UHGV virus genome: UHGV-0277313
DNA length: 64,000 nucleotides
Source: a virus
Strand: one strand, 5' to 3'
Position 1 is the first letter of the stretch. Every line of letters begins with the position of its first letter. The translations under genes and the position numbers were made by a program. Under the pieces are notes generated by a model. The model was not told the DNA's origin. It ran no database searches and saw only the letters and a program-made list of their open reading frames with translations. Below, one piece after another: positions 1-19,085 of this stretch.

Positions 1-1
1 A

Positions 2-247
2 AACGAGTTTATTAAGTATGAAGCAGATGAGAACTTCAACTTCATTGATGTTGTTAATGGTAATTATCGGTTGATGACAACGTGTTGTGTACAATACACT
101 TCAGAGATATCATATTGTATTTTAGGCATTGATGATTTTGATGTGTTGTATAAATATAGAAATAAACTTAATCAGTTAGATATCTATATCACAGATGGAA
201 TAATTAAGGTTAGAGCAATCGGTCAGATAACCTTGAACAATCTGTAA
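2..247 (+). CDS. C-terminal-tail paralog family member (5' truncated by window edge)
   Basis: ORF ends ...KVRAIGQITLNNL*; shares DxDxLxKYRNKLxxLDIYxxDxIKVRxIG block with 1383-1697 and 2192-2548. Confidence 0.5.
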   Translation, partial: NEFIKYEADENFNFIDVVNGNYRLMTTCCVQYTSEISYCILGIDDFDVLYKYRNKLNQLDIYITDGIIKVRAIGQITLNNL

Positions 248-298
248 TATATTGACATTTATCTATACTTTTTATATAACATATGTAAGGGTGATATA

Positions 299-622
299 GT
301 GGATATTAATAGAGAAAGGTTTGTACAGTTGATACAAAAGGTACATGATCAAACTGTAGACTTTGATAAAGGGTCAGTACTGTGTGTCATTAAAGATTTA
401 GCTAGAGAACCGATATACTGTGTTAGTATAAATGATGAATTGTACTATCGTATTATTGTTAAAGTAAAGACTATTCCTTTAGGAAGTATGTTATCTAAAA
501 CTATCTATATCAAAGATAACTTGTTAAAGAGTATATACGATATAGAAAAAACATCATTTAAAATGAATGGTGATTTTATTGAGTTAGAAAACATAGGTCA
601 GATTGTTTTGGAAGAAATTTAA
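299..622 (+). CDS. C-terminal-tail paralog family protein (ends ENIGQIVLEEI)
   Basis: 107 aa ORF; promoter-like TTGACA at ~254 upstream; conserved C-terminal [DE][IV]GxxxLxx[IV] tail. Confidence 0.6.
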   Translation: MDINRERFVQLIQKVHDQTVDFDKGSVLCVIKDLAREPIYCVSINDELYYRIIVKVKTIPLGSMLSKTIYIKDNLLKSIYDIEKTSFKMNGDFIELENIGQIVLEEI

Positions 623-713
623 AATAATGTCAACTTTGATTGTTGCAAACAAGATTTTTAAAGATATATCTATTATTTATAATATGAATGAAGAAAGACT
701 TAAGAATATATAG

Positions 714-1064
714 GTGATTGCTATGCGTGGTAGATTTTATATCATTGAAAGAAGACATCAGAATGATGATACAGACATTATCACATTGAACCGTTGTAAA
801 GGTAATATCATCACACAATCTGAAGAAGAGTTTTTTAATTATATAAAAGACTATCGTTTTAAAGAGTATACGAAATACGCTATCAAGTTTACTGATTGTT
901 TTAATATAGCATTATACTTAAATAAAGTAATGAATATTTTATCAAGATATAGACTGATTGATTGTATGGTTTCTATCAGTGAAGTAGATGAGCGTCATTA
1001 TTTTAATATTGAGTTTCAAGTATTGAACAAACATATTGGTACATTCGCTTTAGAAAGTATTTAA
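714..1064 (+). CDS. C-terminal-tail paralog family protein (ends HIGTFALESI)
   Basis: 116 aa ORF, SD taggtga upstream, conserved tail. Confidence 0.6.
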   Translation: MIAMRGRFYIIERRHQNDDTDIITLNRCKGNIITQSEEEFFNYIKDYRFKEYTKYAIKFTDCFNIALYLNKVMNILSRYRLIDCMVSISEVDERHYFNIEFQVLNKHIGTFALESI

Positions 1065-1084
1065 TATAGATAGGAAGGTGTGTC

Positions 1085-1369
1085 ATGCCGACATTGATTG
1101 TAGCCAATAAAGTCATTAAAGATGTGTCTATAGTAAATAAGCAAAGAAATCGTATTACACTTCGTATGTTAACTAAAGACTCGAATTACTTCAAACATGA
1201 TATCAAAAATGCAAATAAAGATGATCCTGTTATGTATGAAGCGTTTAAAAGAAGTTGCGCGTGTACGTTGTTTGTAAATACAGAATCTTTTAGTAATTGT
1301 GTTGCAGTAAACATTCGCAAATCACGTTTAACAGGTTATCGTATTGTGACATTTGAAAGATTATCATAA
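1085..1369 (+). CDS. hypothetical protein (no family tail)
   Basis: 94 aa ORF, SD aggaaggtg 6 nt upstream of ATG. Confidence 0.5.
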   Translation: MPTLIVANKVIKDVSIVNKQRNRITLRMLTKDSNYFKHDIKNANKDDPVMYEAFKRSCACTLFVNTESFSNCVAVNIRKSRLTGYRIVTFERLS

Positions 1370-1382
1370 ACAGGTGACTGTA

Positions 1383-1697
1383 ATGAAGATGACGATTAGA
1401 CAACGTAAAATTTTAGCTGATAAAATATCTGAACATCTAGTAACTATCAAAGAAAGCGATTCAAATAAGTTTGTTTATTTAAAGGGTAAAAGCCTTATTG
1501 ATATTGTTGATGGTCGCTATACATTATGGACAACTTGTCTAGGTACATTTAAACAACCCGTGTTTTGTGATTTGTATATTGATGATATTGATTTGTTGTT
1601 AAAATATCAAAACAAACTTAATGAATTGGATATTTATGTTGATAAAGATTTCATTAAGGTGCGCAATATTGGTGAAATGACATTCAATAAGATATAA
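1383..1697 (+). CDS. C-terminal-tail paralog family protein (ends NIGEMTFNKI)
   Basis: ORF track gives 1353 start; ATG at 1383 is preceded by SD aggtga and avoids overlap; conserved tail. Confidence 0.6.
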   Translation: MKMTIRQRKILADKISEHLVTIKESDSNKFVYLKGKSLIDIVDGRYTLWTTCLGTFKQPVFCDLYIDDIDLLLKYQNKLNELDIYVDKDFIKVRNIGEMTFNKI

Positions 1698-1707
1698 CTT
1701 TTTTATG

Positions 1708-2076
1708 TCATACTTCATTCAAACAAATTGAACCTATTTCTTTTTCTGATATTTCTATTGCATTTAAATCTTTATTTAATATCAATTCAACATCTTCTTT
1801 TTTAACTGTGTCAATTTTAGATAACAAACGTTTATTGATATATGCCGTGTCTTGTGCAAATACGACATCGTTACCCATGTATGAAAAAGTTTCCAGTTGA
1901 ACGGGTTGTAAATTATCATCTTGATAAAACAATTCTTTTTCTTTTATTTTTGTGGTAACGTCTGTTATATAAAAACGTTGATCCCTGTTTAAAAGATTTA
2001 TTGCATACGACATGTTTTTCAACAGACTTGTCAGTATCACGTCAACATCTTGATTTTGCATTTTATTCTGAATCAC
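1708..2076 (-). CDS. C-terminal-tail paralog family protein on minus strand (ends EIGSICLNEV)
   Basis: 122 aa minus-strand ORF carrying the same C-terminal tail; own TTGACA...TATAAA promoter on minus strand at ~2105-2133; alternative start ATG at 2061. Confidence 0.55.
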   Translation of the reverse strand: MIQNKMQNQDVDVILTSLLKNMSYAINLLNRDQRFYITDVTTKIKEKELFYQDDNLQPVQLETFSYMGNDVVFAQDTAYINKRLLSKIDTVKKEDVELILNKDLNAIEISEKEIGSICLNEV

Positions 2077-2191
2077 TTTTTATCATTTACATTAAATTAA
2101 CTTTATAGTATTTATCATTTTCTGTCAATACAAAATATTTTATTGACAAGTGTTTATATATTCTATATGATAGAACTGTTGATTTGGTGAG

Positions 2192-2548
2192 GTGTATGTA
2201 ATGGTTGAGTTCATGAAACTGTCAAAAATTGATAGAATTAATTTTGCAGAAGAGTTGGCAAAACATATTGCAACTATTAATGAAAGGGTTTTATCAACAT
2301 CGTCAGTTGTTGCATATAAGAGTGGCAAAGCAATGATTGTAAAAAAGGGTGATATGTATGCATTGTGGACAGTGTGTCACCCGCAGTATGAAGCACTTGA
2401 TTCTTATGTTAAAACATGTGTGTTATGGCTTAAAGATTTTGATTTGTTATGGGATTATCGTAATAAATTAAAGCAGCTTGATTTGTATATTGAAAATGAT
2501 TGCATTAAGGTTCGTCATATTGGTGAATTTGTAATGAATAGGATTTAG
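2192..2548 (+). CDS. C-terminal-tail paralog family protein (ends HIGEFVMNRI)
   Basis: 118 aa; promoter TTGACA(2143)-N17-TATGAT upstream; tail motif. Confidence 0.65.
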   Translation: MYVMVEFMKLSKIDRINFAEELAKHIATINERVLSTSSVVAYKSGKAMIVKKGDMYALWTVCHPQYEALDSYVKTCVLWLKDFDLLWDYRNKLKQLDLYIENDCIKVRHIGEFVMNRI

Positions 2549-2556
2549 GTGCAGAC

Positions 2557-2913
2557 ATGAGAAAGTTTAAGATGTATCATAAATTAGATAAAAAGCAAAT
2601 TTTCCAATTAAAAAAGCGGTTGCAGAATCGTGAATATATTGGAGTCGATAATAATAAATATCGTTTTCCTTATATACGAAATTTTGTTGTTTTTGATTCT
2701 GCAGAAGTTTGGGAATATGAAGATGGTGAAGTTTGGTATCACTTCGATATAAAGTCTGAATGTATTAAAAATAAAAAATTGGATTGGCATTTATTTTGCA
2801 TTCCGGAAAATGATGTAGAAGAATTTTTAAATAGTCATTGTAAGTTTCATATTGATACAGAGTCAAGCATCATTTTAGATACAGTAGGTCAAACTGTTTT
2901 GGAGAATATTTAA
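2557..2913 (+). CDS. C-terminal-tail paralog family protein (ends TVGQTVLENI)
   Basis: 118 aa ORF, tail motif. Confidence 0.65.
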   Translation: MRKFKMYHKLDKKQIFQLKKRLQNREYIGVDNNKYRFPYIRNFVVFDSAEVWEYEDGEVWYHFDIKSECIKNKKLDWHLFCIPENDVEEFLNSHCKFHIDTESSIILDTVGQTVLENI

Positions 2914-2915
2914 TT

Positions 2916-3248
2916 ATGATATTTTCAGATAAGCAAAGAATCGTTTTAGCGAATTTATTTGACGGTTTGACATTCAATGATGGTGAGTATTCCTATATAG
3001 TTATTTCTTCAAACTATAAGGATATTAATGCTATATGTAGCGAGGTTGACTTTAATAATGTTAAATATTATGTAATCGAAGTAATTAGTCAAGAAAGATA
3101 TCAATACTTAACGAGACGTAAACATATAGGGTTGTTTGTCAAGGAAGATTATTTGCAGTGTATCTTGGATAACAAGTGCAAAGTCTATATTGATGGCTTC
3201 GTTGTATGTATTCATGACGTTGGAAACTTTTGTTTAGATGAGGTTTAG
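2916..3248 (+). CDS. C-terminal-tail paralog family protein (ends DVGNFCLDEV)
   Basis: 110 aa ORF, tail motif. Confidence 0.65.
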   Translation: MIFSDKQRIVLANLFDGLTFNDGEYSYIVISSNYKDINAICSEVDFNNVKYYVIEVISQERYQYLTRRKHIGLFVKEDYLQCILDNKCKVYIDGFVVCIHDVGNFCLDEV

Positions 3249-3250
3249 CA

Positions 3251-3721
3251 ATGGGCGATAAGATACGTTTCAAAATGATTAAAAATCCGAAAATAAAAAA
3301 ACATCGTATTTGTGGCAAGTTTTTTAAAAAGTTGTCTGAACAGCCCCCAACACACGGTGAATGGTTATATTCAACAATCTTTTTTGGAAATCGTTATGAT
3401 AGAAGACGTTTTAAATTTTTGTTGTCGTTGCTGTTTGATGACATTCAAGGAAAGCCTATTTTATATAGTTCAGGTGATTCACGAGTTTTAACACCTGAAA
3501 AGGTTACTGACATTTCATATAATACAGTCGATAAACAATATTATTTTATTGTCAAATGTACCTGTTTTCATTATGTGGCTGTGGTTATTTCAAAAGAGCT
3601 ATGGCACGAATTGATTCATCTGAAAAACAAATATTGTGATTTGAAGTTTGAAACAGATTTGATAGGTAACGAGCATTTGGTAAAACAACAAATTGGGGCA
3701 TCGTGTTTAAATGGTATATAA
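3251..3721 (+). CDS. C-terminal-tail paralog family protein, NRYDRRR subgroup (ends QIGASCLNGI)
   Basis: 156 aa; N-terminal FFGNRYDRRRFKF block shared with next two genes. Confidence 0.65.
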   Translation: MGDKIRFKMIKNPKIKKHRICGKFFKKLSEQPPTHGEWLYSTIFFGNRYDRRRFKFLLSLLFDDIQGKPILYSSGDSRVLTPEKVTDISYNTVDKQYYFIVKCTCFHYVAVVISKELWHELIHLKNKYCDLKFETDLIGNEHLVKQQIGASCLNGI

Positions 3722-4097
3722 AAAACGAGTTCAGAAATTATTTGATTTGAAGCCCGTTAATAATCCGTTCTGGGTTTTTTATAAAGGTTTTGTGCTAAAT
3801 CGTTATGAAAGAAGAAGACTAAACAAAATTATCCGTTTCGTAAAAACAAATGATACTTTCAAGGATTTTGGAATATTAAAAGTTGAAAATATATGTTATA
3901 AAAGAGACTATCAATTAGTCGAGATACGTGTACTATGTTTAGAATATGACTATATAAGTGTTGCTGTAAAAAAAGATTTGTGGGAAAATTTATTGAAGTT
4001 TGATATTAATTACTTAACTGTCAGTCACCCGCTTGATTTTTACTATATAGTAAATGTTGATAAAACAGTTGGTGAAGTGACTTTGAATAATTTTTAA
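3711..4097 (+). CDS. C-terminal-tail paralog family protein, NRYDRRR subgroup (ends TVGEVTLNNF)
   Basis: 128 aa; FVLNRYERRRLNKI block; tail motif. Confidence 0.65.
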   Translation: MVYKKRVQKLFDLKPVNNPFWVFYKGFVLNRYERRRLNKIIRFVKTNDTFKDFGILKVENICYKRDYQLVEIRVLCLEYDYISVAVKKDLWENLLKFDINYLTVSHPLDFYYIVNVDKTVGEVTLNNF

Positions 4098-4137
4098 TGT
4101 CGCTTGAAAATATGTTTTCAGTTTATGAAAGATTGTC

Positions 4138-4533
4138 ATGGGAAAAAGATTTAAAAAGATTGCTGATACTTACCAGTTCGTAACAGGTTTTATATTGAAT
4201 CGTTATGACAGGCGTCGGTGCAATAAAATTAGAAAGACTTTCATTGGAAGAGAAATTGAAGCGTACAATGTTGGTAATGAACAGTCTGATGTTTTAACAA
4301 TCAATGACGTGTCTTTGTGGGAATATAAAAGAAATCTTAATCGATACCTTTTTATCTTTAAATTATCAAACGGTTTCAGCACACCAGTCTTTTTGGATGG
4401 AACATTATATGATAACTTGAATCAGGTTGATAACAAACAGTTAGGAATGAAGTGTGTTATTTATAATTCGGATCGTTTTGAGCAGTATATTGTTTTAAAT
4501 GATATTGGCGACGCCTGTTTAAAAACATTTTAG
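4138..4533 (+). CDS. C-terminal-tail paralog family protein, NRYDRRR subgroup (ends DIGDACLKTF)
   Basis: 131 aa; FILNRYDRRRCNKI block; tail motif. Confidence 0.65.
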   Translation: MGKRFKKIADTYQFVTGFILNRYDRRRCNKIRKTFIGREIEAYNVGNEQSDVLTINDVSLWEYKRNLNRYLFIFKLSNGFSTPVFLDGTLYDNLNQVDNKQLGMKCVIYNSDRFEQYIVLNDIGDACLKTF

Positions 4534-4626
4534 AATAGTTAATATTTTTTAAAGTTAAATATTTTATACATAAGACGTTGTAATGTAAGGTATGTTTTCA
4601 TTAACAGTCATGGAGATAATTTCTAG

Positions 4627-4980
4627 ATGAACGCAGATGCCATTGTAAAGAAAGTTGTTGATTGGTTTGTAGGTCAAACGGTTAGTGTGAACAAACCTAA
4701 TTCTGATATAACTTTAACATTTCATATAGATGAATTCATACCTTCAGAAACATTGGAACTGTCTGATGGTATTTATTTGCGCTTTAATACTAAAATTAGG
4801 AACGATAATGAAGTGATACTTTGTTCAATTTTGATGGTTGATAAAAGATTTTTTGATGCTATAGAATCAACAGATACAAAATTCTTCAGGTATTCAAGTA
4901 AGTTTTTAAATTATTCAGCAGGGTATATTTTTTTCTTTGAGTTTGCAGATTTAAATAACGAATGTCTTGAAAATATTTGA
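4627..4980 (+). CDS. probable divergent family member (ends ADLNNECLENI)
   Basis: 117 aa ORF; degenerate tail lacking the Gly. Confidence 0.5.
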   Translation: MNADAIVKKVVDWFVGQTVSVNKPNSDITLTFHIDEFIPSETLELSDGIYLRFNTKIRNDNEVILCSILMVDKRFFDAIESTDTKFFRYSSKFLNYSAGYIFFFEFADLNNECLENI

Positions 4981-4991
4981 ACAGGTGAATT

Positions 4992-5357
4992 ATGAAGTTT
5001 GAACACACTGATAAAGACATTATTGATAAATGTGAAGCTATCCTTTTAAGAGTTGTAAACATTAACGATATTTATTATAGTAATGACAGGTTTTCAGCAG
5101 GAATAATTTCAACTATGTCTGATCCGCCGTATAGAGAAAAAGCAAAAGGTATATATGTGTTTGTAGATGCAACAAGATATTCAACAAATAAAAACGATGC
5201 AGTGTTGTGTGTTTACATTTGTAACGAGTTATTAGAACTAGACAAACAAGATATATCCAAGAAACAATTTAAAATTGAGAATACACAGATTAATTCGTTG
5301 AATTATTTACATGTTTGTGAAATTGGTATTGGTGAATCTGTTTTGGAACAAATGTAA
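4992..5357 (+). CDS. C-terminal-tail paralog family protein (ends EIGIGESVLEQM)
   Basis: 121 aa ORF, tail motif. Confidence 0.6.
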   Translation: MKFEHTDKDIIDKCEAILLRVVNINDIYYSNDRFSAGIISTMSDPPYREKAKGIYVFVDATRYSTNKNDAVLCVYICNELLELDKQDISKKQFKIENTQINSLNYLHVCEIGIGESVLEQM

Positions 5358-5409
5358 TGTTTGATTAAATAAATTGAAAGTTATTCTAAATTAGAAGGTA
5401 ATTAAACTT

Positions 5410-5718
5410 ATGACGAATTTTGTAGCATTTAATGGAAAGACTTTAAAAGTAATTTGCAAAGAATTAGGCTTGAATTATACAACTGTCACACAACGAAGAA
5501 TGAAAGATCCGGGAAAACCTTTAGAAGCGTACCTGTATCCGGCAAGAAAGAATAAAGGTGGAAACTGTTGTGCAGATTATTTTACAAACGATGGTAAATC
5601 TGTTTATCAATTATTTAAAAACAACAAATCACAATATTCAAAAATGCTCTATTTAATGGGGAAGAAGAAATTAAGTTTCGATGAAGCTTATGAAATTGTC
5701 ATGGAAGAAAACAAGTAA
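5410..5718 (+). CDS. hypothetical protein
   Basis: 102 aa ORF, SD agaaggt upstream; no tail motif. Confidence 0.5.
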   Translation: MTNFVAFNGKTLKVICKELGLNYTTVTQRRMKDPGKPLEAYLYPARKNKGGNCCADYFTNDGKSVYQLFKNNKSQYSKMLYLMGKKKLSFDEAYEIVMEENK

Positions 5719-6056
5719 TGCCGTATACGTCATACATATATGAAGAATTAACAGTAACAAAAGCTTTTGAATTTAAGGAAGCTTTAAAAGGAACAAAATT
5801 TTTATTTAAAAATAATACTTATACTATTGTTGACATTGGAACTTGTTTGTATTCCTTACATGGTTCTGAACCGTGGTCGTTGAAAGTTAAAGCTGTCACA
5901 GATGCAAACGGTATATCAATGACAAGAGAGTTTTCATTTTATATTGATGAAAGTTTAATCGATAATAATCTTGATTATAAGAACATGATGTTCGGGATTG
6001 TTAATGATGAAATCGTAGCTTCAAGTGTAGGACAAGAAGTGTTAAACCAAATATAA
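5718..6056 (+). CDS. C-terminal-tail paralog family protein (ends SVGQEVLNQI)
   Basis: 112 aa, tail motif; followed by bidirectional terminator. Confidence 0.65.
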   Translation: MPYTSYIYEELTVTKAFEFKEALKGTKFLFKNNTYTIVDIGTCLYSLHGSEPWSLKVKAVTDANGISMTREFSFYIDESLIDNNLDYKNMMFGIVNDEIVASSVGQEVLNQI

Positions 6057-6086
6057 AACAAAATTGATTAATTTTAATGTATTATA

Positions 6087-6128
6087 AAAGCGGCTGATCA
6101 TTTTAAGGTCAACCGCTTTTATTTTTAT
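6087..6128. terminator. bidirectional rho-independent terminator
   Basis: near-perfect hairpin aaagcggctgatca...ggtcaaccgcttt followed by T-run, between convergent genes. Confidence 0.7.
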
Positions 6129-6140
6129 CTAATTAACTGT

Positions 6141-7043
6141 TTACTGTTTATCGATTTGATGTTGTTTAAGATATTCACGAATTTCATCATCAAACGCAAA
6201 AGACAGTGCTGTTTTATTTTCATCAGAAACAGCATCAACATCAGCACCTTTTTCAACTAGCAATTTGACAGTATCAAAATCATTATGAAGTGTCGCATTC
6301 ATCAATGCCGTCATCCCTGTAGATGAACGAGCATTAACGTCAGCACCGTTTTCTAATAACATCTTAATGATATCTATAGAGTCTTGACGGCAAGCAAAGA
6401 TTAAAGGAGTGTCGCCTTCCCAATCTGTATTATCAATATCAGCACCAAGTTCTATAGCTTTTTGTGCAAGTTCAAGTTTATTGAGAATGCAGCTTCCAGT
6501 TAAAAGACGATTCGGGTCTTTAATTTCCGCATTGTGTTTGATTAATGTTTCAATAATATCATAAGCGTATTCGTATGCACCTTCTGATAACAGAACGTCA
6601 GCAGTTGTCATTCCGTTTATATTAGTAATGTTTGTATCAGCACCATGTTCTAATAACCAATTTATAGTTTCAATATCACCATAACCGAGACATGTGATAT
6701 ATAAAATTGTTTCGCCGCTTTTATTTTTAAAATTTAAATCAGCCCCGTGTTCATATAATAATTGAGCAACTTCAAGATTGTCAAGATAGATAGCACGAAA
6801 CAAAGGAGTTTCACCAAATTGGTCTGTCATGTTGACATCAACTTGAGGGTTATCTTCCAGAAGTTGTTTAATTGTTTCGAAGTCATTTGAGAACAGTTTG
6901 ATTTTCGTATCATCTGTTTCATCTTCTTCAATCATTTTTATAACCATTTCTTTTAGTTTGTATTTAACTGAACGTTTAAAAGATTCGAGTTTTAAATTTT
7001 CATCATTCATGTATTTAGTCCTTGTGTCAATAAAACGATGCAA
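6141..7043 (-). CDS. ankyrin-repeat protein
   Basis: 300 aa; repeated G(A/E)(D/T)xNxx(D/N)xxGxTPLxxAxxxxxxxxxxLLExGAD units (e.g. GETPLFRAI..LLYEHGADLN, GMTALMNATLH..LLVEKGADVD). Confidence 0.8.
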   Translation of the reverse strand: MHRFIDTRTKYMNDENLKLESFKRSVKYKLKEMVIKMIEEDETDDTKIKLFSNDFETIKQLLEDNPQVDVNMTDQFGETPLFRAIYLDNLEVAQLLYEHGADLNFKNKSGETILYITCLGYGDIETINWLLEHGADTNITNINGMTTADVLLSEGAYEYAYDIIETLIKHNAEIKDPNRLLTGSCILNKLELAQKAIELGADIDNTDWEGDTPLIFACRQDSIDIIKMLLENGADVNARSSTGMTALMNATLHNDFDTVKLLVEKGADVDAVSDENKTALSFAFDDEIREYLKQHQIDKQ

Positions 7044-7530
7044 CTTTTGGTGATAGTGTTTTTAAGTATTTTGGTTCGACAATGTCTAGCATGTTTACTT
7101 TTTTAAGTAAGCTATACGGAGATGACCAAATATTTTCTTGACTATATAAATCAGCACCATGACGAAGCAAATAATTTATTTTATCTTTTTCATCATCAAT
7201 ATCTTCTTGTGTTGTGTGACTATCTAAACTATCAACAAAATTTTTTGTAATCATCTGTAAGACTTTATTCATTCGTTCATTATCAAAATAAACTTTATAA
7301 TGATCAAGAATCAAATCAGCAACGTCAAAAGCTTTACTTTCAAAACAAATAGCAAATGCGATTCGACTATCAATTCCTAAATCTTTAGGATGCTGTTCTT
7401 CAAAAGATTTAATTTCATCAACAGTCATTGTTTCGACAGTTGCATATTCACGTTCAACAAGTTGTGTTAATTTGTTATTGATGACTGTTTTAAAGCTTTC
7501 GATTAAAGTTTCTTTGTTCAACATTGACAA
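7027..7530 (-). CDS. hypothetical protein
   Basis: 167 aa ORF co-directional with and overlapping the ankyrin gene start. Confidence 0.55.
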   Translation of the reverse strand: MSMLNKETLIESFKTVINNKLTQLVEREYATVETMTVDEIKSFEEQHPKDLGIDSRIAFAICFESKAFDVADLILDHYKVYFDNERMNKVLQMITKNFVDSLDSHTTQEDIDDEKDKINYLLRHGADLYSQENIWSSPYSLLKKVNMLDIVEPKYLKTLSPKVASFY

Positions 7531-7591
7531 CCTGATATTTATATGTTAAGTTAATTATCTTAAAGAACGGTTGTTTTGAAAGATGATTTAG

Positions 7592-7942
7592 ATGTCTAAA
7601 ATAAAAAATATCACAAAACTAATGCTGAATAGTTTTTTAATAAATGATTGGTTTTTCAATTTAACATCTGAACAACAAAATAAAATGTTGGGTTTATTGA
7701 AGAGAGTTGTTAAAAATGATTATAATTTAGATATTGAAATCAAGGGTGTTATTTCACAAACCTTTTTCATTAGCTCAATTTGTTTTACAATAAAATTAAA
7801 CAATGGTGAACAATTGGAAATCTATGTTTCTGACGAAATTGACAACTATAAAGATAAACTAGATTGTATCTGTTTAAAAAGAGTTAAAGACAATGAGTTC
7901 AATGTTGCAGAAATTGGTGAATCAGTGTTAAAAGAGTTGTGA
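7592..7942 (+). CDS. C-terminal-tail paralog family protein (ends EIGESVLKEL)
   Basis: 116 aa, tail motif. Confidence 0.6.
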   Translation: MSKIKNITKLMLNSFLINDWFFNLTSEQQNKMLGLLKRVVKNDYNLDIEIKGVISQTFFISSICFTIKLNNGEQLEIYVSDEIDNYKDKLDCICLKRVKDNEFNVAEIGESVLKEL

Positions 7943-7943
7943 T

Positions 7944-8279
7944 ATGATTGATTTTGATAAGTTAACAAAAGAACAGTTATACGAATTCATTGATGTTTTT
8001 GATGAATTGATTTTAAAAGAATACGGTTGGTGTCGAGCGTATGATAAAGAAGCGTTTTTGGAAGATTTGCTAGAAACAATTCACAAGGTTGATAACGTCT
8101 ATTGTTTTTATGTGGATGTTAAAAGAAAGGGTGGCAAGAAACGCAATTCAAGATTTTTCTATTTTGATACATTATTTTTTGAGAGCAAATGTAAATTTCA
8201 CAAAATGAAATTGAAACGTGTTGATGAAACAACATTCATGTTAGCAGATGTTGGTTATGAATTGTTAAGAAATATTTAA
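7944..8279 (+). CDS. C-terminal-tail paralog family protein (ends DVGYELLRNI)
   Basis: 111 aa, tail motif. Confidence 0.6.
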   Translation: MIDFDKLTKEQLYEFIDVFDELILKEYGWCRAYDKEAFLEDLLETIHKVDNVYCFYVDVKRKGGKKRNSRFFYFDTLFFESKCKFHKMKLKRVDETTFMLADVGYELLRNI

Positions 8280-8287
8280 GTAGGAAG

Positions 8288-8662
8288 ATGTACATGCAAT
8301 TACAGGTAGGTATTGGTTTAGATAGTGTTGTTAAAAAGTCACAAGAGTTAGTTGAACAATCATCACCTTTATATATTGATGACAATGGAGTCAAGAGGTT
8401 AGTATTAGGTGTTCATACAAGGATTGATTCCGGTTTAATTTTTGATGATGATTACTATTATATTGATGTTGCAACAAAGATAGTTGACGAAGATTATTTT
8501 CAAACAAAAGCAACAATCCGTGTAGCTGTTGATAAAAAAGTTATCGATGCAATAAAAGACGTAAAACAATATAAAGCAAAATTTGTTAATAGAAATGTTT
8601 CAATATGTAATAACGTTCTAGAAATCGTGGAATTAGGTGAACGTGTTTTACAAAGGATTTAG
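8288..8662 (+). CDS. C-terminal-tail paralog family protein (ends ELGERVLQRI)
   Basis: 124 aa, tail motif. Confidence 0.6.
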   Translation: MYMQLQVGIGLDSVVKKSQELVEQSSPLYIDDNGVKRLVLGVHTRIDSGLIFDDDYYYIDVATKIVDEDYFQTKATIRVAVDKKVIDAIKDVKQYKAKFVNRNVSICNNVLEIVELGERVLQRI

Positions 8663-8667
8663 ATATC

Positions 8668-9060
8668 ATGTTAATGAAGCTTCCAAAAAATTCACAAGTA
8701 ATGAAAAATGCAAGAAACTTATTTAAAGCAGCTAAAGGTTTACAAGTTGAAGTACCCGAAAATAAAGCGTTTGTTATTACAGAAATGGTTGATTCAACTA
8801 TAGTTTATAAAATGGATGCAAACGGTTGTGAATATTTAGGGTTCAGTGTTAAATCGTTATATTTTTATTTAGGTATATTGAACGGAGAACATCCAATTAT
8901 TATTAATACGATTTGGTGTTTGCGTAGTTGGATTGAACAAACATCAGATTTTAAAAAGGAAAATCTTGAATTCTTTCAATTTGATGGAACAGGTAATCTA
9001 TATGGTAAATTAATTATTCAAGATAAATCAATTGGACAAATGCTATTAAACAATGTTTAG
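8668..9060 (+). CDS. C-terminal-tail paralog family protein (ends SIGQMLLNNV)
   Basis: 130 aa, tail motif. Confidence 0.6.
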   Translation: MLMKLPKNSQVMKNARNLFKAAKGLQVEVPENKAFVITEMVDSTIVYKMDANGCEYLGFSVKSLYFYLGILNGEHPIIINTIWCLRSWIEQTSDFKKENLEFFQFDGTGNLYGKLIIQDKSIGQMLLNNV

Positions 9061-9064
9061 CTAT

Positions 9065-9093
9065 TGACATTTTTGAAATTTTATTATAATATA
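9065..9093 (+). promoter_or_regulatory. sigma70-like promoter (TTGACA-N17-TAATAT)
   Basis: ctaTTGACAtttttgaaattttattaTAATAT upstream of kinase-phosphatase-ligase gene. Confidence 0.5.
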
Positions 9094-9120
9094 AAAATCT
9101 AATTGATTAAGGACACGCTA

Positions 9121-11391
9121 ATGAAATATCTAATTTTGCTTCGGGGTCTTCCTGGTTCTGGTAAAAGTTATTGGATAAAAGAAAACAAATTAGAAGATTA
9201 TACTATTTCTTCTGATAATGTTCGTTTGTTGTTTGCAACACCGTCTATTCCTTTTCAGGCTTGTTATAAGGATAGAGGAATTTCACAAAAGAATGACAAA
9301 GAGGTTTGGGATTTAATACATTCTTTAGTTGAACGTCGTTTAATGGAAGGCATGACAACTATCGTTGATGCAACACATTTGACTGTTAAGTCTATTAATT
9401 ATTACAAAAGCTTTTGTGCAAGTAATAATGTACGTTGTATCGTATTGGATTTTAATGTTAGCCTGGAAAGTGCTATTAACAATGATTTGTTAAGAAAAGG
9501 CACTTGTCGTTATGTAGGTTGTCAGATCATTAAAATAATGAATGACAAAAAAGAAGATGTGCCTAAATGGGTTGATTATACAACTGATAAAGAGCATGTT
9601 GTCAAGCTGTTTAATGACTGTATAGACGCGGTTGATTACAATGAGAAGTATGATAGCGTTGTAATCTTCGGTGATTTGCATGGTTGTTATGAACCTTTAA
9701 AACAGTGGTTTGACAAACATCCTGTTAACGACAAAACGAAATATATCTTTTGTGGTGATTATGAAGATAGAGGTATTCAACATAAAGAGTTGTTTGATTT
9801 TCTTTTAGAACATCGCAAAGATTTTAATTTCAAATTCTTAAAAGGCAATCATTCTTGTCGTTTGTTACAGATAGCTGAACGTGATAAAGATTCTATTCGT
9901 TATCCGGAATACTATAATACGTTTGAACAAATGAAAGATTTTGATCCTATTGAACTGAAAAAGTTTGTTCGGGATCAAGATGATATGGTTTACTTTACAT
10001 TTCGTAATAAAAACTTTTGTGTATCACATGGTGGTATTAGTTGTCTTCCGACTTTAAAGTTGAATAGTAGTGAATACATAAAAGGTCACGGAACATATCA
10101 AATGTCAAATGATGTGGATAATGATTTTATGTTCAATTCTTCTATTGAAGGTGATAACATTTATCAGGTACATGGTCATCGCAACGTTACAAATAGTGAT
10201 ATTCAAGTATGTGATCGTTGTTTTAATTTGGAAGGAGGAGTTGAGTTCGGTGGTGAATTACGAATTCTTCAGATTGATAGTGAAGGTAAATGTATACTGG
10301 ATTCTATTAGAAATACTGTTTTTAAAGAATTGACGGAAGGTTCGAAGATTGTCAATGAGTTTAAGTATTCTTCATTGATTAGAAAGTCGCAAAACCCAAA
10401 CGGTATTAGTTCTTATAACTTTAATCGAGACGCTTTTTTTGATAAAAAGTGGAATAGCTTGACGTGTACCGCAAGGGGCTTGTTTGTATATGATGATACA
10501 GATAAAGTTGCAGCAAGGTCTTTTAACAAATTCTTTAATTTGAATGAAACTAGTACTTCGAAATTAGATTATATTGTGAAGAATTGGTGTGGCGTCACGA
10601 ATGTTTATAAAAAGGAAAACGGATATTTAGGTATCATTTCTGTTGATGTTCGTGATAACAGTTTCATTTTAGCATCGAAAAGTCGTACTGATAAAGAGTT
10701 CGCAACGAATATTAGTAGAATCTTTAATGAAAAATTGTCAGAAGAACAACAGAACAATTTGAAGAAATGGTTATTGAAGGATGTGGATAAACATCAAGGT
10801 AATGCATATTCTTTAGTTGTTGAAGTAATTGATCCAATTAACGATCCGCATTTTGTTCAATATGATAAAGATGATATTGTTGTTTTGGATGCATTCGTTA
10901 ATGACTTTAATGAAAAAACTGTTTCATATGATGAACTGATTTCATTACATGACTTAACAGGTTTGACAATAAAAGAAAAGATTTGTGAGACGTGTGATCT
11001 AAAGACAACAATTCATGAACTTTGTAATACCAAAGATCATATCGAAGGATTTGTTTTAGAAGGGCATGATTATAATGGCAAGACTGTTCGTGTGAAGATT
11101 AAAACAAAATGGTACTTGATGTGGAAGAAGTTCAGATCAACAGGTGATTTCGATGAACGATTCGACATTAAAGATTTTTTGACAGTTGAACAACAAAAAT
11201 ACGCCAAACAAATCTATAGCCGAACAAAACAATTGATCGATTTACGTAATGGAGATACAGTTAGTACTGATGGTTCAATAAATGTAAATGATGAAATTGA
11301 CAATTATGTTATGTTTATTTATAGAGATTTGATTGGTGATTCGCGGATTAATATACCGAAAATTATACAATCTGTTGAAAATGTGAAATAG
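9121..11391 (+). CDS. polynucleotide kinase-phosphatase / RNA ligase (Pnkp-like three-domain RNA repair enzyme)
   Basis: N-term P-loop LLRGLPGSGKSYW; central calcineurin-type phosphoesterase motifs GDLHGCY, GDYEDRG, GNHS; C-terminal nucleotidyltransferase motif I YKKENGYLG (KxNG). ATG at 9121 has SD aagga; ORF track start 9103. Confidence 0.75.
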   Translation: MKYLILLRGLPGSGKSYWIKENKLEDYTISSDNVRLLFATPSIPFQACYKDRGISQKNDKEVWDLIHSLVERRLMEGMTTIVDATHLTVKSINYYKSFCASNNVRCIVLDFNVSLESAINNDLLRKGTCRYVGCQIIKIMNDKKEDVPKWVDYTTDKEHVVKLFNDCIDAVDYNEKYDSVVIFGDLHGCYEPLKQWFDKHPVNDKTKYIFCGDYEDRGIQHKELFDFLLEHRKDFNFKFLKGNHSCRLLQIAERDKDSIRYPEYYNTFEQMKDFDPIELKKFVRDQDDMVYFTFRNKNFCVSHGGISCLPTLKLNSSEYIKGHGTYQMSNDVDNDFMFNSSIEGDNIYQVHGHRNVTNSDIQVCDRCFNLEGGVEFGGELRILQIDSEGKCILDSIRNTVFKELTEGSKIVNEFKYSSLIRKSQNPNGISSYNFNRDAFFDKKWNSLTCTARGLFVYDDTDKVAARSFNKFFNLNETSTSKLDYIVKNWCGVTNVYKKENGYLGIISVDVRDNSFILASKSRTDKEFATNISRIFNEKLSEEQQNNLKKWLLKDVDKHQGNAYSLVVEVIDPINDPHFVQYDKDDIVVLDAFVNDFNEKTVSYDELISLHDLTGLTIKEKICETCDLKTTIHELCNTKDHIEGFVLEGHDYNGKTVRVKIKTKWYLMWKKFRSTGDFDERFDIKDFLTVEQQKYAKQIYSRTKQLIDLRNGDTVSTDGSINVNDEIDNYVMFIYRDLIGDSRINIPKIIQSVENVK

Positions 11392-12242: not shown

Positions 12243-13538
12243 ATGGTTGATAAAGTTTGTAAATTGTCAAGCGGTGCAACGTTCCTGTATAATCAGCAAG
12301 AAGATGATTTGGCATCTTTTGCTATCTTGTTTGATGTAGGTTCGATTGATGAACAGGAAAATGAGAAAAAAGGTATTGCACATTGCCTAGAACATATGAT
12401 GTTCAAAGGAACTAAAACAAAAACATCAGCTGAATTTCTTGATTTGATGGATAAGTTGGGTGTTGAATCAAACGCGTTTACTTCGTTTGATGTAACTTGT
12501 TATCATGGAACGTTTCATAATGATGATACAAATGATGTCATTAATCTATTCGGTGAAATGATTACAGAACCCCGTTTTGATTATAAAGATTTGGAATTAG
12601 AAAAAGGTGTAATTCATCAAGAAATCATTATGGGTGAAAACGATCCGCAAAGCCGTGCACAACAGTATGGTTTGGAAAACATTTTTAAAGACACACCTTT
12701 TGCAAGGCCTGTTATTGGTTATTGGAAAGATGTGAATTCTATTACACCTGATGATTTGCGTTCATTTATGTACAATCATTATACACCGTCTAATTGCATT
12801 ATTGCCTATTCAGGAAAAACGTCTTTTAATGATGTTAGAAAAATTGTAGAAGACTTTACAAAAAAATTATCTAATAATACTGTTAGATTTGAACGTAAAG
12901 ATGTTAAAGTTAATTTAGGTGCTGAGACTGTCATTATCGAAGATAAAGAGACTAAACAGAATACTATTATGATTGGCGGTGCTTTATATAATAGTAATAC
13001 AGTTGATGGTGTAGCTTGCATTCTTGCTAAAGCTGTTCTTTCTGGCGGTCTGGCAAGTCGTTTGGTTAAACGAATCCGTGAAGAATTAGGCTTGTGTTAT
13101 TACATTGGAATTACAAACGTTCCTTCTATGAAAGATTTTGTATGTCCTTTAATCGTTTGTATTACTGATAAAGATACAAAAATGGTGGAAATGGAAATCA
13201 AAAAGGTTATTGCCAAAGCGATCAAAGAAGGTTTCGAAGATGAAGAAATCAAAACTGTAAAGAAACATGGCGAACTTGTTTGTATCAAATCAAATATTGA
13301 TCGTGATGATTATGCTGTAACAATGTGTACAAATTATCAAGGTACAGGTAAGTTGCCGTCACAGCTATTGAAAACTAAAGTGTCAAGGTTTAAGAAAGCA
13401 TCAAAGAAATCTGTTAATGAAGCAGTTGATAAGTTGTTTTGTGAAACAATTTCAGTTCATGTTGTCAAACCTATCAAAAAACAGAATGCTTTTAAACGGT
13501 TCTTCAAACTGGTGTTTGACAGATTGAATGAAGAATAA
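12243..13538 (+). CDS. M16-family (pitrilysin/insulinase-like) zinc metallopeptidase
   Basis: inverted zinc motif GIAHCLEHMMFKGTKT (HxxEH) near N-terminus, 431 aa. Confidence 0.75.
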   Translation: MVDKVCKLSSGATFLYNQQEDDLASFAILFDVGSIDEQENEKKGIAHCLEHMMFKGTKTKTSAEFLDLMDKLGVESNAFTSFDVTCYHGTFHNDDTNDVINLFGEMITEPRFDYKDLELEKGVIHQEIIMGENDPQSRAQQYGLENIFKDTPFARPVIGYWKDVNSITPDDLRSFMYNHYTPSNCIIAYSGKTSFNDVRKIVEDFTKKLSNNTVRFERKDVKVNLGAETVIIEDKETKQNTIMIGGALYNSNTVDGVACILAKAVLSGGLASRLVKRIREELGLCYYIGITNVPSMKDFVCPLIVCITDKDTKMVEMEIKKVIAKAIKEGFEDEEIKTVKKHGELVCIKSNIDRDDYAVTMCTNYQGTGKLPSQLLKTKVSRFKKASKKSVNEAVDKLFCETISVHVVKPIKKQNAFKRFFKLVFDRLNEE

Positions 13539-15365: not shown

Positions 15366-15845
15366 ATGGTAAAAATGATAAAACCAGAGGACTTAAAACC
15401 AATCGACAATATAATTGCAAGTACATATTGGTCTGATGGAGATATTTTAAAACAAGATTATAGTACCTGTTTTCATTATATTGCAGATAATTCATTTAAA
15501 TATACACGGTGTTCTGATAAAACTGATTTTAATAATCTTGATGAATTCTTTTCAAAAGTTTTGCAAGCAGTTTTGTCAGGTACAAAATTTATTATATCAG
15601 GACAATATCATTTTGGTTACGATTGTTACCTATTCAGAAAAGGGCATCCTTTGAATGAAAATATAGGAAAACACTATTTTATGGCAGCAATCGGATATAA
15701 AAAGATAAATGGATTACTAGAATATTATAGTAATAAAGTTTATCCAAATATAGTAGTTACGCCATATGATGATGGAAGGTTGCCGTATTTCAAAACTTTA
15801 GTGCGGAAAGCTGAATTTGGTGAAACAATTCTAAATAAAATTTAA
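15366..15845 (+). CDS. C-terminal-tail paralog family protein (ends EFGETILNKI)
   Basis: 159 aa, tail motif. Confidence 0.55.
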   Translation: MVKMIKPEDLKPIDNIIASTYWSDGDILKQDYSTCFHYIADNSFKYTRCSDKTDFNNLDEFFSKVLQAVLSGTKFIISGQYHFGYDCYLFRKGHPLNENIGKHYFMAAIGYKKINGLLEYYSNKVYPNIVVTPYDDGRLPYFKTLVRKAEFGETILNKI

Positions 15846-16236: not shown

Positions 16237-16328
16237 GGAAATGTGGATGAGTGGTTTAAATCAGCGGTTTGCTAAACCGTCGGGCATAGAAATATGTCCC
16301 GCAAGTTCGAATCTTGCCGTTTCCGCCA
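16237..16328 (+). tRNA. tRNA-Ser (anticodon GCT), class II
   Basis: acceptor ggaaatg/cgtttcc, anticodon loop ttGCTaa, long variable arm, T-arm gcaag-ttcgaat-cttgc, G73, CCA encoded. Confidence 0.7.
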
Positions 16329-16355
16329 AAAGTTTCTGTAGAAGATACAGGTTAC

Positions 16356-16449
16356 GCCTTCGTCGTTCAATGGTTAGGACACTCGGCTTATACCCGAGCG
16401 AGCAGCTGATATCTGCGAAATCACAGTTCGAATCTGTGCGGAGGTACCA
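16356..16449 (+). tRNA. class-II (long variable arm) tRNA with anticodon UAU, discriminator A73
   Basis: acceptor gccttcg/cggaggt; D-stem gttc/ggac; anticodon stem ctcgg/ccgag with loop cTTATAc; 23-nt variable arm; T-arm cacag-ttcgaat-ctgtg; CCA encoded. Confidence 0.5.
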
Positions 16450-16457
16450 ATTTTAAT

Positions 16458-17312
16458 TTGCATTTTGAAAGTTGGGTAGATATGCAATATTTGACAAAGC
16501 CTTTTGTAAAATGGGTCGGTGGTAAAAAACAACTTCTTGAGAAATTAGGATCTTGTATGCCCAAAGATTACAATCGTTATTACGAACCTTTTATTGGTGG
16601 TGGAGCTTTATTGTTTAATGTTCAACCTAAAGATGCTGTCATTAATGATACAAACAGTCAGTTAATAAATGTTTATAATCAATTAAAAACAAACATTGAA
16701 GATGTTATAAAAACGGTGAATACTTTAGATAGTAAAATGTGTAATGAAGATTATTATCTAGAAATTCGTGACCGTTATAATTCAAAAATCAAATCAAAAG
16801 AGTTAGATGCTGAATGTGCTTCTTTAATGATTTGGGTTAACAAACATTGTTTTAACGGGCTATATAGAGTCAATTCAAAAGGGTTGTTTAACGTCCCGTA
16901 TAACAATAAAGTAAATGGCGTTTCAATTGATGAATGTAATTTACGAAACATCAGCAATTATTTAAATTTAAATAAAGTTGATATTCGTGAAGGTGATTTC
17001 GAAGCCGCTTGTTCCGATGTGAAAAAAGGCGATTTGGTATATTTTGATTCGCCGTACGTTCCAGTAAGTAAAACAGCAAACTTTACAAATTATACAAAAG
17101 ATGGTTTTAGTTTAAATGATCACAAACGTTTGGCTAAATTGTTTTGCACTCTGGATAGTTTAGGTGCGTATATTATGTTAAGCAATAACGATGTTCCTTT
17201 GGTTCATGAGTTGTATAGTCAATTTAATGTGACTTCTGTTGATGCCCGTCGTGCTGTCAATAGAGATGCAACAAAAAGGAAAGGTAAGGAAGTAATCGTT
17301 ACCAATTTTTGA
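16458..17312 (+). CDS. dam: DNA adenine methyltransferase (Dam-like, N6-adenine)
   Basis: N-terminal KPFVKWVGGKKQLL (Dam motif I), YFDSPYV catalytic (DPPY-like) motif; 284 aa. Confidence 0.8.
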   Translation: MHFESWVDMQYLTKPFVKWVGGKKQLLEKLGSCMPKDYNRYYEPFIGGGALLFNVQPKDAVINDTNSQLINVYNQLKTNIEDVIKTVNTLDSKMCNEDYYLEIRDRYNSKIKSKELDAECASLMIWVNKHCFNGLYRVNSKGLFNVPYNNKVNGVSIDECNLRNISNYLNLNKVDIREGDFEAACSDVKKGDLVYFDSPYVPVSKTANFTNYTKDGFSLNDHKRLAKLFCTLDSLGAYIMLSNNDVPLVHELYSQFNVTSVDARRAVNRDATKRKGKEVIVTNF

Positions 17313-17325
17313 TTAAACAGATAGT

Positions 17326-17412
17326 GGATGGGTCGCATAGCGGCAATTGCTGGGGACTGTAAATCCCCCGCCTGAAAAGGCTTCGTTGGTTCGAGTCCAA
17401 CCTCATCCACCA
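17326..17412 (+). tRNA. tRNA-Tyr (anticodon GTA), class II
   Basis: acceptor ggatggg/ctcatcc, anticodon loop ctGTAaa, variable arm gcctgaaaaggcttcg, T-arm gttgg-ttcgagt-ccaac, CCA encoded. Confidence 0.7.
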
Positions 17413-17441
17413 AAAATTTTTAAAAAGATGAAAAAAAGTTC

Positions 17442-17470
17442 TTGACAATTAGCATTACATTTGCTATAAA
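17442..17470 (+). promoter_or_regulatory. sigma70-like promoter (TTGACA-N17-TATAAA)
   Basis: aaaaaaagttcTTGACAattagcattacatttgcTATAAA, paralogous to promoter at 15904. Confidence 0.55.
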
Positions 17471-17984
17471 TAATACATCAAGACGAGATATTAAACATTG
17501 TAAATAAGAAACAGCCAAATGAAAAGGCCTTTACGTGGCTTGGCTGATAAGTAGCTTTCTTCATTTAGTGAATTTAGTGAAACCAACTTTTTCATTGTTT
17601 AATATCTCATATAACTTGAACTGTATAAAAACAGTACGGCTGTATAGACATAAGATGATTCTGCCTATATAGTTTCCGTCATCAGTCTGATTACCTTTTC
17701 GTGGTTTGACGGATAAGTAGCGACCTTCAACTGTTTATTTTCAAGAGCGAAGCATTGATTATAAACTGTCGCGAAACTAAAGTTCTGACATGTAACAGTT
17801 GATGAAATTTCCGCATCGGTTGTTACAATATGATAATGGTCTTGACGAATTATAACCCCAATTTAACGTACGGTAATGCGGGAAAACATAGTTGTTATAA
17901 TGACTCAAGATCTTTCAAGCTATTTGTTTAGCCGTTTTCAGGAAAGTTTTGGGGTGAAAAACTTCCTTGTTATTATTTGTAAAA

Positions 17985-18236
17985 TATGCCTTGATTTTTA
18001 ATTTTCTATAACTTCTAATAAAGTAGAATAGGAAATTTTAAAAGGTTTTAAAATTAAGTTGGAAGATTTGTGATTTTGTTATACAGAGTGACTGAATCAA
18101 TGGAAGAAAGAGGTCGTTTTGTTTAGATTGCAAACCCAATTTGATTTTAAATAAAAAGAAAATCTGAGTGAAATAAAGGTTTTCTCCTTAGAAATAAGGT
18201 TCTTTTTAGACTTAAGTCTTCTAAATTTATATAAAG
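17985..18236 (+). ncRNA. ~250 bp repeated putative small transcription unit, copy A
   Basis: ~88% identical to 38538-38790; contains mini-ORF MEERGRFV (18100-18126) and a terminal hairpin tttaga..tctaaa followed by an AT run. Confidence 0.4.
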
Positions 18237-18718: not shown

Positions 18719-18794
18719 GCCGAAATAGCACAGTTGGTAGTGCAGTTGATTTGTAATCATCAGGTCGTGGGTTCAAATCCCTCTTTCGGCACCA
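18719..18794 (+). tRNA. tRNA-Thr (anticodon TGT)
   Basis: acceptor gccgaaa/tttcggc, D-stem gcac/gtgc, anticodon loop ttTGTaa, CCA encoded; one mismatch each in anticodon and T stems. Confidence 0.6.
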
Positions 18795-19082: not shown

Positions 19083-19085
19083 TTT

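Follow-up and report, generated by a model that had tools for sequence, protein, structure and literature searches.

What does it mean when more than two dozen small genes of one virus, whose products are barely recognisable as relatives, end on the same few residues immediately before their stop codons? The question is raised by UHGV virus genome UHGV-0277313, of which a stretch of 64,000 nucleotides (30% G+C) was analysed in full; we refer to this whole stretch as the window. A preliminary description had proposed a shared terminal signal carried by diversifying bodies. We find that the genes form a new, undescribed, lineage-specific paralog family that has expanded in tandem, and that the tail is confined to one kind of small domain. 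On balance, we lean towards a reading in which a fast-diversifying small α/β domain, probably expressed early, was tandemly amplified in this lineage, with the tail as its terminal helix and with the family acting as a repertoire of host-takeover or anti-defence binders.

A six-frame scan of the window for G-x3-[LFM]-x2-[IVFLM] directly before a stop codon returned 27 stop-to-stop open reading frames (ORFs) of at least 50 amino acids (aa), 26 on the plus strand and one on the minus strand (1708-2076). Only 0.48 were expected among the 298 ORFs, given how often the motif occurs internally in all of them (binomial P=3.8e-38), and a degenerate DNA version of the tail matched 11 times, compared with 0.05 in shuffles. 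The earlier count of about 27 small ORFs with the tail at the stop codon, one of them on the minus strand, was thus reproduced, and a 28th member was added at 4627-4980, whose tail (ADLNNECLENI) has Asn in place of Gly. The called members are 99-159 aa long, apart from one cut by the window edge (2-247), have predicted isoelectric points (pI) from 4.5 to 9.4 and together cover 10,260 bp, or 16% of the window. Tail ORFs were found at every location previously listed (2-9060, 15366-15845, 30263-31359, 35706-38467 and 41595-41957), and the bodies are as divergent as described, since all-against-all BLASTP among the members yielded links only within three small subgroups. The clusters are where the four tandem arrays had been placed, although the runs are broken by non-member genes at 1085-1369, 5410-5718, 6141-7043(-), 7027-7530(-) and 36962-37588.

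Two of these interruptions in the first array deserve mention in their own right. The gene at 1085-1369 (94 aa) has no tail, is kept in three related contigs (L001, L002 and L151), shows a ratio of nonsynonymous to synonymous substitution rates (dN/dS) of 0.13-0.25 and reaches a weak 13.8 bits with the family profile; it represents a degenerate member or else a small gene of another kind. A 300-aa ankyrin-repeat protein (6141-7043(-)) and its 167-aa neighbour (7027-7530(-)) are kept in all related strains.

An alignment of 55 non-redundant members defined the conserved C-terminal element as φ(-14)..K(-11)-[DENTS](-10)-[IVL](-9)-G(-8)-x-x-[VTC](-5)-L(-4)-[NED](-3)-x-[IV](-1), where φ is a hydrophobic residue; columns -8, -4 and -1 were preset by the regular expression that collected the sequences, and the other columns are informative. 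A conserved C-terminal element of the kind described is therefore present, but it is longer than ten residues, reaching back to φ(-14). Residue -3 is Asn, Glu or Asp in 41 of the 55 members, and the last residue is Ile, Val, Leu, Phe or Met in all of them, with a C-terminal extension in none, so that a hydrophobic residue with a free carboxylate stands at the exact C-terminus, as in a C-terminal degron or a PDZ-type ligand. The conserved positions -9, -8, -5, -4 and -1 have helical periodicity. Gly(-8) is replaced only by Asn or Ser, and outside the window such replacements were found in P0005 and in three ORFs of the nearly identical strain L151 (2816-3187, 3602-4009 and 4859-5248), the four tails being LSEETLDNI, VNEEYLEGL, CNLASLDSI and ISNTVLEQI. 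A helix N-cap with a hydrophobic staple consists of G, N, S, T or D preceded by a hydrophobic residue and followed by a Leu five positions after the latter. Because the Gly position tolerates only Asn or Ser, we take φ(-9)-[G/N/S](-8)-x-x-[VTC](-5)-L(-4)-x-x-φ(-1) to be a helix N-cap together with a hydrophobic staple that spans N' to N4.

Is the conserved unit a protein element or a DNA element? We aligned the last 15 codons and the 40 downstream bases of all 28 genes. Information in the tail was high at codon positions 1 and 2 and ~0-0.5 bit at position 3, the bases after the stop carried 0-0.2 bit and showed no conservation, and synonymous codons varied within the tail (TTA, TTG, CTT and CTA for Leu; GGT, GGA, GGC and GGG for Gly). 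The tail is selected at the amino-acid level only, in agreement with its earlier treatment as a protein feature. Since neither the third positions nor the post-stop bases are conserved, a DNA-level repeat at the gene ends, such as a recombination site or a PeSL-like element, was rejected. In related metagenomic contigs the dN/dS of family orthologs was 0.1-1.0, mostly 0.2-0.6, compared with 0.05-0.36 for neighbouring genes, and by this measure the members are real, translated genes whose proteins are under purifying selection, in a relaxed or partly diversifying regime. Conservation at the DNA level in any form (through a repeated element where genes end, whether for recombination, termination or promoter function), or a non-genic nature of the ORFs, might be suggested by the tandem, closely packed arrangement of the ORFs, their AT-rich composition and the promoters that follow some arrays; against the codon pattern, a dN/dS below 1 in most orthologs and the retention of orthologs in a relative at only 27-61% protein identity, the probability of this explanation is negligible.

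We then asked whether the bodies behind the tail are related. AlphaFold2 (AF2) models of members from two different arrays, 299-619 (model 1) and 38132-38464 (model 2), have the identical predicted element order, α1, five strands, α2, β-hairpin and α3 (model 1: H3-15, strands, H73-78, E87-90, E93-96 and H99-106; last helix of model 2, H103-110; scores in Table 1), and in both of them the tail is predicted to be helical and constitutes α3. In leave-one-out hidden Markov model (HMM) searches that were tail-anchored but had the last 20 residues cut from both profile and query, the held-out member ranked first among 75 likely genes in 6 of 22 cases and within the top three in 10 (P=4e-9, median rank 4.5), the 22 being the members without close paralogs; the result was similar with 30 residues removed. 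The bodies also share an amphipathic α1, often ending in G-Q-T, and a φ-x-[YFW]-φ-x-[KDE] strand followed by an x-L-φ-x-x helix. From these comparisons we regard the bodies as homologous, close to the detection limit. The statement that the family is defined only by its tail holds insofar as the bodies are barely recognisable, and fails insofar as two models share an element order and trimmed bodies rank at the top. Model 1 may bear a weak resemblance to NTF2-, VirB8- or cystatin-like folds, and a weak DUF4467 match was seen at E=0.015.

The distribution of the tail bears directly on the idea of a shared terminal signal. Across the loci of this lineage, 102 ORFs carry the tail, all of 69-163 aa, and longer members such as 15366-15845 consist of the same domain plus an N-terminal extension; the tail occurs on none of the 75 ORFs of at least 165 aa. 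Were the tail a portable signal, proteins unrelated to this domain should bear it too. No tail was seen on proteins of unrelated folds and sizes, which is the trait of T4-type cargo, as all carriers fall in this size range with one predicted topology, so a shared portable tag is not supported. With the tail confined to one domain and forming the final helix in both models, the original notion of a common signal on diversifying bodies is only partly supported.

How far does the family extend beyond the window? Protein look-ups in Logan, ENA and JGI assemblies identified syntenic contigs of 74 kb (L001) and 81 kb (L002), the strain L151 and, from a relative that has diverged further, contigs of 313,762 and 314,217 bp (L022 and L023). 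Given syntenic relatives of this size, we assign the window to an uncultured jumbo phage with a genome of roughly 300 kb. One relative carries the sample label 'TONG22-1', a tentative hint at an oral habitat; tongue-dorsum samples were the source of circular jumbo phages above 300 kbp reported in a 2020 preprint. The first array extends upstream of the window start in relatives, and L151 has ten further members there, three with Ser or Asn for Gly, which brings one genome to at least 38 members, 28 of them in the window. Nine members lie between 30 and 42 kb in the window, and each of them has a positional, tailed ortholog in the 314-kb relative. Outside the tail, identity to the L022 orthologs is 27-61% for the family versus 59-98% for 14 neighbouring genes, and within the tail only the motif positions are retained. 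Copy number varies between strains: two members are missing from both L001 and L002 (Table 1), and truncated alleles without the tail occur in strains including L002 (P0007 on 10 contigs).

When a profile of the 27 window members was run, with no word filter, against 1.84 billion representative proteins, only 15 clusters reached E<=1e-3; they were 111-157 aa long, all from this lineage and all aligned to the very last residue. A second, word-indexed profile search had the same outcome. Megablast of 1-9100 against 50,697 phage records returned no match, nor did an IMG/VR search further upstream with an L002 protein. A search of IMG/VR and JGI metagenomes with the PNK-Rnl gene adjacent to the first array retrieved only phages of ~170 kb at 33-36% identity, and no tail ORFs were found in the three of their loci that were checked (L006-L008). 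The exact DNA pattern of one tail variant occurred in at least 120 stretches of IMG/VR; among the stretches listed, several tail ORFs were found only in two, both from the 313,762-bp relative, and the others were chance singletons. None of 36 members had a significant match in Pfam-A, PHROGs v4 or NCBIfam 20, where the best hits were single-member and chance-level (E 0.001 or worse), or any match among PDB sequences, and a literature search found no description of the family. The statement in the preliminary description that no matching family was known agrees with these searches. Taken together, common descent (shared element order and the ranks of the trimmed bodies, P=4e-9, with hhalign negative), tandem arrangement, copy-number variation between strains and restricted range characterise a lineage-specific paralog family.

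We also examined the setting of the arrays. Intergenic TTGACA-N17-TAnnnT sites lie before or just after the arrays, at 252, 2143, 7524, 9064, 30206, 31362 and 38472, and the 314-kb relative retains both hexamers but has different spacer sequences. As the overall count of promoter-like sites is not above chance in this AT-rich DNA, the promoter argument rests on position and conservation. Transcription of the arrays by the host σ70-type RNA polymerase is the likely meaning of these sites, and early expression would then be probable. The surroundings are genes of nucleic-acid metabolism, tRNAs and DNA modification, not a head module.

These features bear on the suggestion that the tail is a packaging or ejection tag like the capsid-targeting sequence (CTS) of T4, by which the proteins would be co-injected with the DNA from a large capsid. 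In favour of this, the members are small with a compact build, internal proteins are numerous in jumbo capsids, and small divergent proteins sharing only a ten-residue terminal peptide are the signature of the T4 internal-protein locus. We nevertheless consider the tag improbable, because the arrays stand behind conserved σ70-type promoters among the genes just named, the tail is predicted as a helix integral to a single fold and is not appended to unrelated folds, and natural strains can lack single members or carry them in truncated form. Neither a protease-site-like motif before the tail nor any other conserved cleavage-type motif next to it was found in the 55-member alignment, and the peptide is C-terminal, not N-terminal as in T4 cargo.

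The M16 (insulinase-type) peptidase that had been noted in the window is indeed encoded there, at 12243-13538, with two domains and an HxxEH motif, and is kept in related strains. The tail could accordingly be imagined as a C-terminal degron or processing signal, read by this peptidase or by a host protease that recognises C-termini, so that the early proteins would be short-lived or would undergo maturation. The enzyme is encoded 3 kb downstream of the first array, in a position shared with the relatives, and the C-terminus is hydrophobic and exactly terminal. This neighbourhood is the sole link between peptidase and family, in a phage where all genes are neighbours; moreover, M16 enzymes have short unfolded peptides or N-terminal presequences as substrates, and a cleavage motif of that kind is absent here; the tail does not resemble the bacterial C-degrons considered, and the helix-capping residue pattern would go unexplained. 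We therefore rate a degron or processing signal as highly improbable. Likenesses to M16 substrates, ClpX degrons, clamp-binding motifs, the SSB tip and the IGF loop were each dropped on account of mismatched residue patterns.

A different possibility is that the terminal helix is exposed to solvent in the monomer and acts as a constant docking or oligomerisation handle, through which ~40 bodies would meet one partner or form mixed oligomers. Candidates for the partner are a phage machine and host hubs such as a protease, clamp or polymerase, and the free carboxylate would take part in the contact. Several features suit such a handle: the C-terminal length is invariant, with every profile hit ending at the last residue; Leu(-4) is near-invariant and position -3 prefers polar or acidic residues (Asn, Glu or Asp, as above), which does not favour helix stability; the predicted local distance difference test score (pLDDT) falls on the tail in the better model; and five hydrophobic positions within nine residues need burial. 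Others do not: the tail matches none of the C-terminal binding motifs considered (ClpX LAA, clamp QL[SD]LF, SSB DDDIPF and the ClpP IGF loop), it has never been transplanted onto another fold, the Gly to Asn or Ser replacements suit helix capping better than tight helix-helix packing, and its non-motif positions drift at the speed of the body. We rate the handle as rather unlikely, though as the strongest of the alternatives. A more specific form, in which ~40 diverging recognition bodies constitute a phage adaptor repertoire whose common C-terminal helix and carboxylate dock onto one hub (a host protease, the replisome, RNA polymerase or a phage machine), is doubtful. In that case a variety of host targets, for example defence proteins, would be delivered to a single effector through one handle, as a bacterial-virus counterpart of poxvirus ankyrin-PRANC or F-box systems.

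In the reading that we favour, that of an amplified domain with a structural terminal helix, the motif would start a two-turn amphipathic helix whose φ/VTC/L/φ face packs onto the domain, and the rest of the fold would keep hydrophobic patterning only. As an indel-free stretch that is fixed at the terminus and under steric constraint, the tail would stand out as if nothing else were conserved. The family would have been amplified by tandem duplication in the ~300-kb phage, with the variable sheet, loops and N-terminal extensions carrying specificity and the terminal helix serving as the constant part of the scaffold. Evolution faster than that of the neighbours, gain, loss and truncation of copies and the wide pI range make a repertoire of host-takeover or anti-defence binders the most likely function, and this host-interaction role is the weakest link of the reading.

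Several results weigh against it. Both AF2 runs shared one family alignment, so that their agreement is not fully independent; model 2 is of moderate confidence, and in model 1 the pLDDT falls to ~64 on the tail, which makes its packing on the body tentative. In hhalign comparisons of tail-trimmed ortholog groups no body homology emerged beyond the three known subgroups, with family-to-family scores barely above family-to-control scores, and unanchored leave-one-out HMMs on the bodies found no family-wide homology. Early timing is argued solely from promoter consensus and conservation, and the role in host interaction from evolutionary behaviour, not homology. Finally, the lack of any C-terminal extension in ~55 non-redundant members also fits a partner that recognises a free C-terminus, and a Leu(-4) far more invariant than the other core positions likewise fits recognition by a partner.

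In this part of a jumbo phage, about one gene in ten encodes the same undescribed fold. Its evolution outpaces that of the surroundings, as is usual for viral genes in conflict with the host, and the family is a promising source of new anti-defence or host-takeover activities; its ~40 sequence-unrelated variants of one small scaffold are a natural series for the limits of fold divergence and the residues that a fold requires. If the helix is only structural, the outcome is a well-characterised ORFan family and little more. High interest would attach to the family only in the case that the constant helix turns out to be a common docking handle, which would represent a new kind of modular adaptor system in phages. 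The members and promoter-like sites in the window are collected in Table 1.

Table 1. Family members and σ70-like promoter sites in the 64-kb window.
Feature	Position	Strand	Tail	Remarks
Family member, N-terminus cut by window edge	2-247	+	AIGQITLNNL	49% identical to 1353-1697; full-length ortholog L151 5760-6107
σ70-like promoter, TTGACA-N17-TATAAC	252-280	+		before 299-622; consensus match only
Family member, 107 aa, AF2 model 1	299-622	+	NIGQIVLEEI	pLDDT 83.6, predicted template-modelling score (pTM) 0.70
Family member	714-1064	+	HIGTFALESI	present in L151, missing from L001 and L002
Family member	1353-1697	+	NIGEMTFNKI	BLASTP link to 2-247
Sole minus-strand family member	1708-2076	-	EIGSICLNEV	own TTGACA promoter 2128-2100
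σ70-like promoter, TTGACA-17-TATGAT	2143-2171	+		before 2192-6056 run; divergent partner 2128-2100 (-)
Family member (P0003)	2192-2548	+	HIGEFVMNRI	true start probably a few codons downstream
Family member	2557-2913	+	TVGQTVLENI	
Family member	2916-3248	+	DVGNFCLDEV	
Family member, basic N-terminal extension (NRYDRRR motif)	3251-3721	+	QIGASCLNGI	BLASTP subgroup
Family member, NRYERRR subgroup	3711-4097	+	TVGEVTLNNF	BLASTP
Family member, NRYDRRR subgroup	4138-4533	+	DIGDACLKTF	BLASTP
Family member, degenerate tail	4627-4980	+	DLNNECLENI	Gly replaced by Asn
Family member	4992-5357	+	GIGESVLEQM	
Family member	5718-6056	+	SVGQEVLNQI	
σ70-like promoter	7524-7552	+		before 7592-9060
Family member	7592-7942	+	EIGESVLKEL	no ortholog in L001 or L002
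Family member	7944-8279	+	DVGYELLRNI	
Family member	8288-8662	+	ELGERVLQRI	
Family member	8668-9060	+	SIGQMLLNNV	
Isolated family member, 159 aa (P0006)	15366-15845	+	EFGETILNKI	N-terminal extension ~55 aa
σ70-like promoter	30206-30234	+		before 30263-31359; hexamers kept in 314-kb relative, spacer diverged
Family member	30263-30676	+	DLGQTTLESI	
Family member	30689-31000	+	EAGVYTLETV	
Family member	31000-31359	+	DIGTACLNEI	
Family member	35706-36086	+	DVGESLLGDV	
Family member	36086-36490	+	EVGLSVLNEV	
Family member, hydrophobic N-terminal segment	36491-36949	+	DIGNVCLNSI	
Family member, 99 aa	37641-37940	+	EIGEFALESI	
Family member, AF2 model 2	38132-38467	+	EVGKVVLDNV	pLDDT 70.5, pTM 0.50
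σ70-like promoter with TG extension	38472-38500	+		just after 35706-38467 array; kept in 314-kb relative
Isolated Cys-rich family member	41595-41957	+	ECGEAVLESI	

Other contents of the window were recorded alongside the family. Directly after the first array, 9103-11391 encodes a protein of 762 aa (PNK-Rnl) in which a P-loop kinase (AAA_33) is fused to a metallophosphatase and a T4 Rnl1-type RNA ligase, an enzyme of the tRNA-repair type whose nearest relatives in cultured phages (Alicyclobacillus, Staphylococcus and Mammaliicoccus phages) are ~32% identical. Thirteen tRNA genes, all on the plus strand and with ORFs interspersed, occupy the 7 kb from 16237 to 23178; several are 87-94 nt long, including a 94-nt tRNA-Ile(TAT). 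The window also encodes a Dam-type methylase. Four tandem paralogs of 287-326 aa (45432-49157), with an N-terminal CxxxCxxC and a C-terminal Cys cluster, are flanked by three ~315-aa paralogs and a QueC-like PP-loop protein (neighbourhood coordinates 27581-28540, 49150-51047 and 28543-29400); the one protein tested from each of the two paralog sets had no Pfam match, and all of these genes may form a nucleotide or DNA-modification module. TnpB / Cas12f-like ORFs lie at 26400-27482, 33561-34754 and 61693-63006(-), the first with OrfB_IS605 and TNB domains; no close bacterial relative of TnpB was found among 185,579 species genomes, and by gene lists the first two ORFs are lacking at the syntenic places in the 314-kb relative.

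A second dispersed paralog family, glycine-rich and weakly matching Pfam Gly_rich_2, occurs on both strands at 24958-25614, 32162-32905(-), 51852-52469(-), 52958-53596 and 58958-59599(-), its copies adjoining one of two 421-430-aa paralogs (23532-24824(-) and 59680-60945) or other fibre-like genes. The protein at 43545-44210 ends in a run of ~30 Ser/Cys (SSSSSSSSSCSCSSSSSCCSSSSS) followed by YIVYMMI, and the run is kept in the 314-kb relative. The cumulative GC skew rises steadily to ~50 kb and is then flat, a change that coincides with the switch from almost exclusively plus-strand genes to mixed strands.

To which known systems, then, does this family compare? It could be assigned to no described protein family or fold, and has the properties of a lineage-specific expanded paralog family. 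The internal proteins IPI, IPII and IPIII of T4, encoded by the hypervariable IP locus, are small, unrelated but for a terminal peptide, accessory and anti-defence; IPI* blocks a restriction enzyme, and the content of the locus differs between related phages. Their CTS is N-terminal, occurs on unrelated folds and is removed by the prohead protease, and the cargo is packaged. The likeness consists of small phage proteins in a plastic locus that share a terminal peptide of ~10 residues; here, by contrast, the peptide is C-terminal, is a predicted helix of one fold, is absent from the 75 larger ORFs and belongs to genes with σ70-type promoters.

The multigene families (MGF) 110, 360 and 505 of African swine fever virus (ASFV) and the ankyrin-PRANC proteins of poxviruses are tandem, lineage-specific paralogs, present in tens, that diverge rapidly, differ in copy number and interact with the host. 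The present arrays resemble them in all of these respects but host interaction, for which the comparison is only suggestive, and the ankyrin-PRANC proteins also in having a constant C-terminal element on variable bodies. They differ in that those viruses are eukaryotic and their proteins have other folds and known adaptor partners, and in that the constant element here spans ~10-15 residues. The terminal-redundancy module of SPO1 and the early 'monkey-wrench' genes of T4 are same-strand runs of small genes with strong host-type promoters, mostly ORFans and individually dispensable. Small same-strand genes behind host-type promoters are common to both, whereas their genes are unrelated and here one fold is present in ~40 copies, with 16% of the window given over to it.

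Poly-immunity arrays (SUKH, Imm-NTF2 and others; Zhang et al. 2012, PMC3482391) are tandem arrays of small, very divergent α+β immunity proteins. They resemble our family in arrangement, size, divergence and α+β content, and perhaps through the weak NTF2-, VirB8- or cystatin-like character of model 1, and differ from it in that our members have no HMM match to such families and no toxin context and belong to a lytic-type jumbo phage. As analogies, the T4 IP locus, the multigene families of eukaryotic large DNA viruses, early host-takeover clusters and poly-immunity arrays are the closest counterparts of the family described here.

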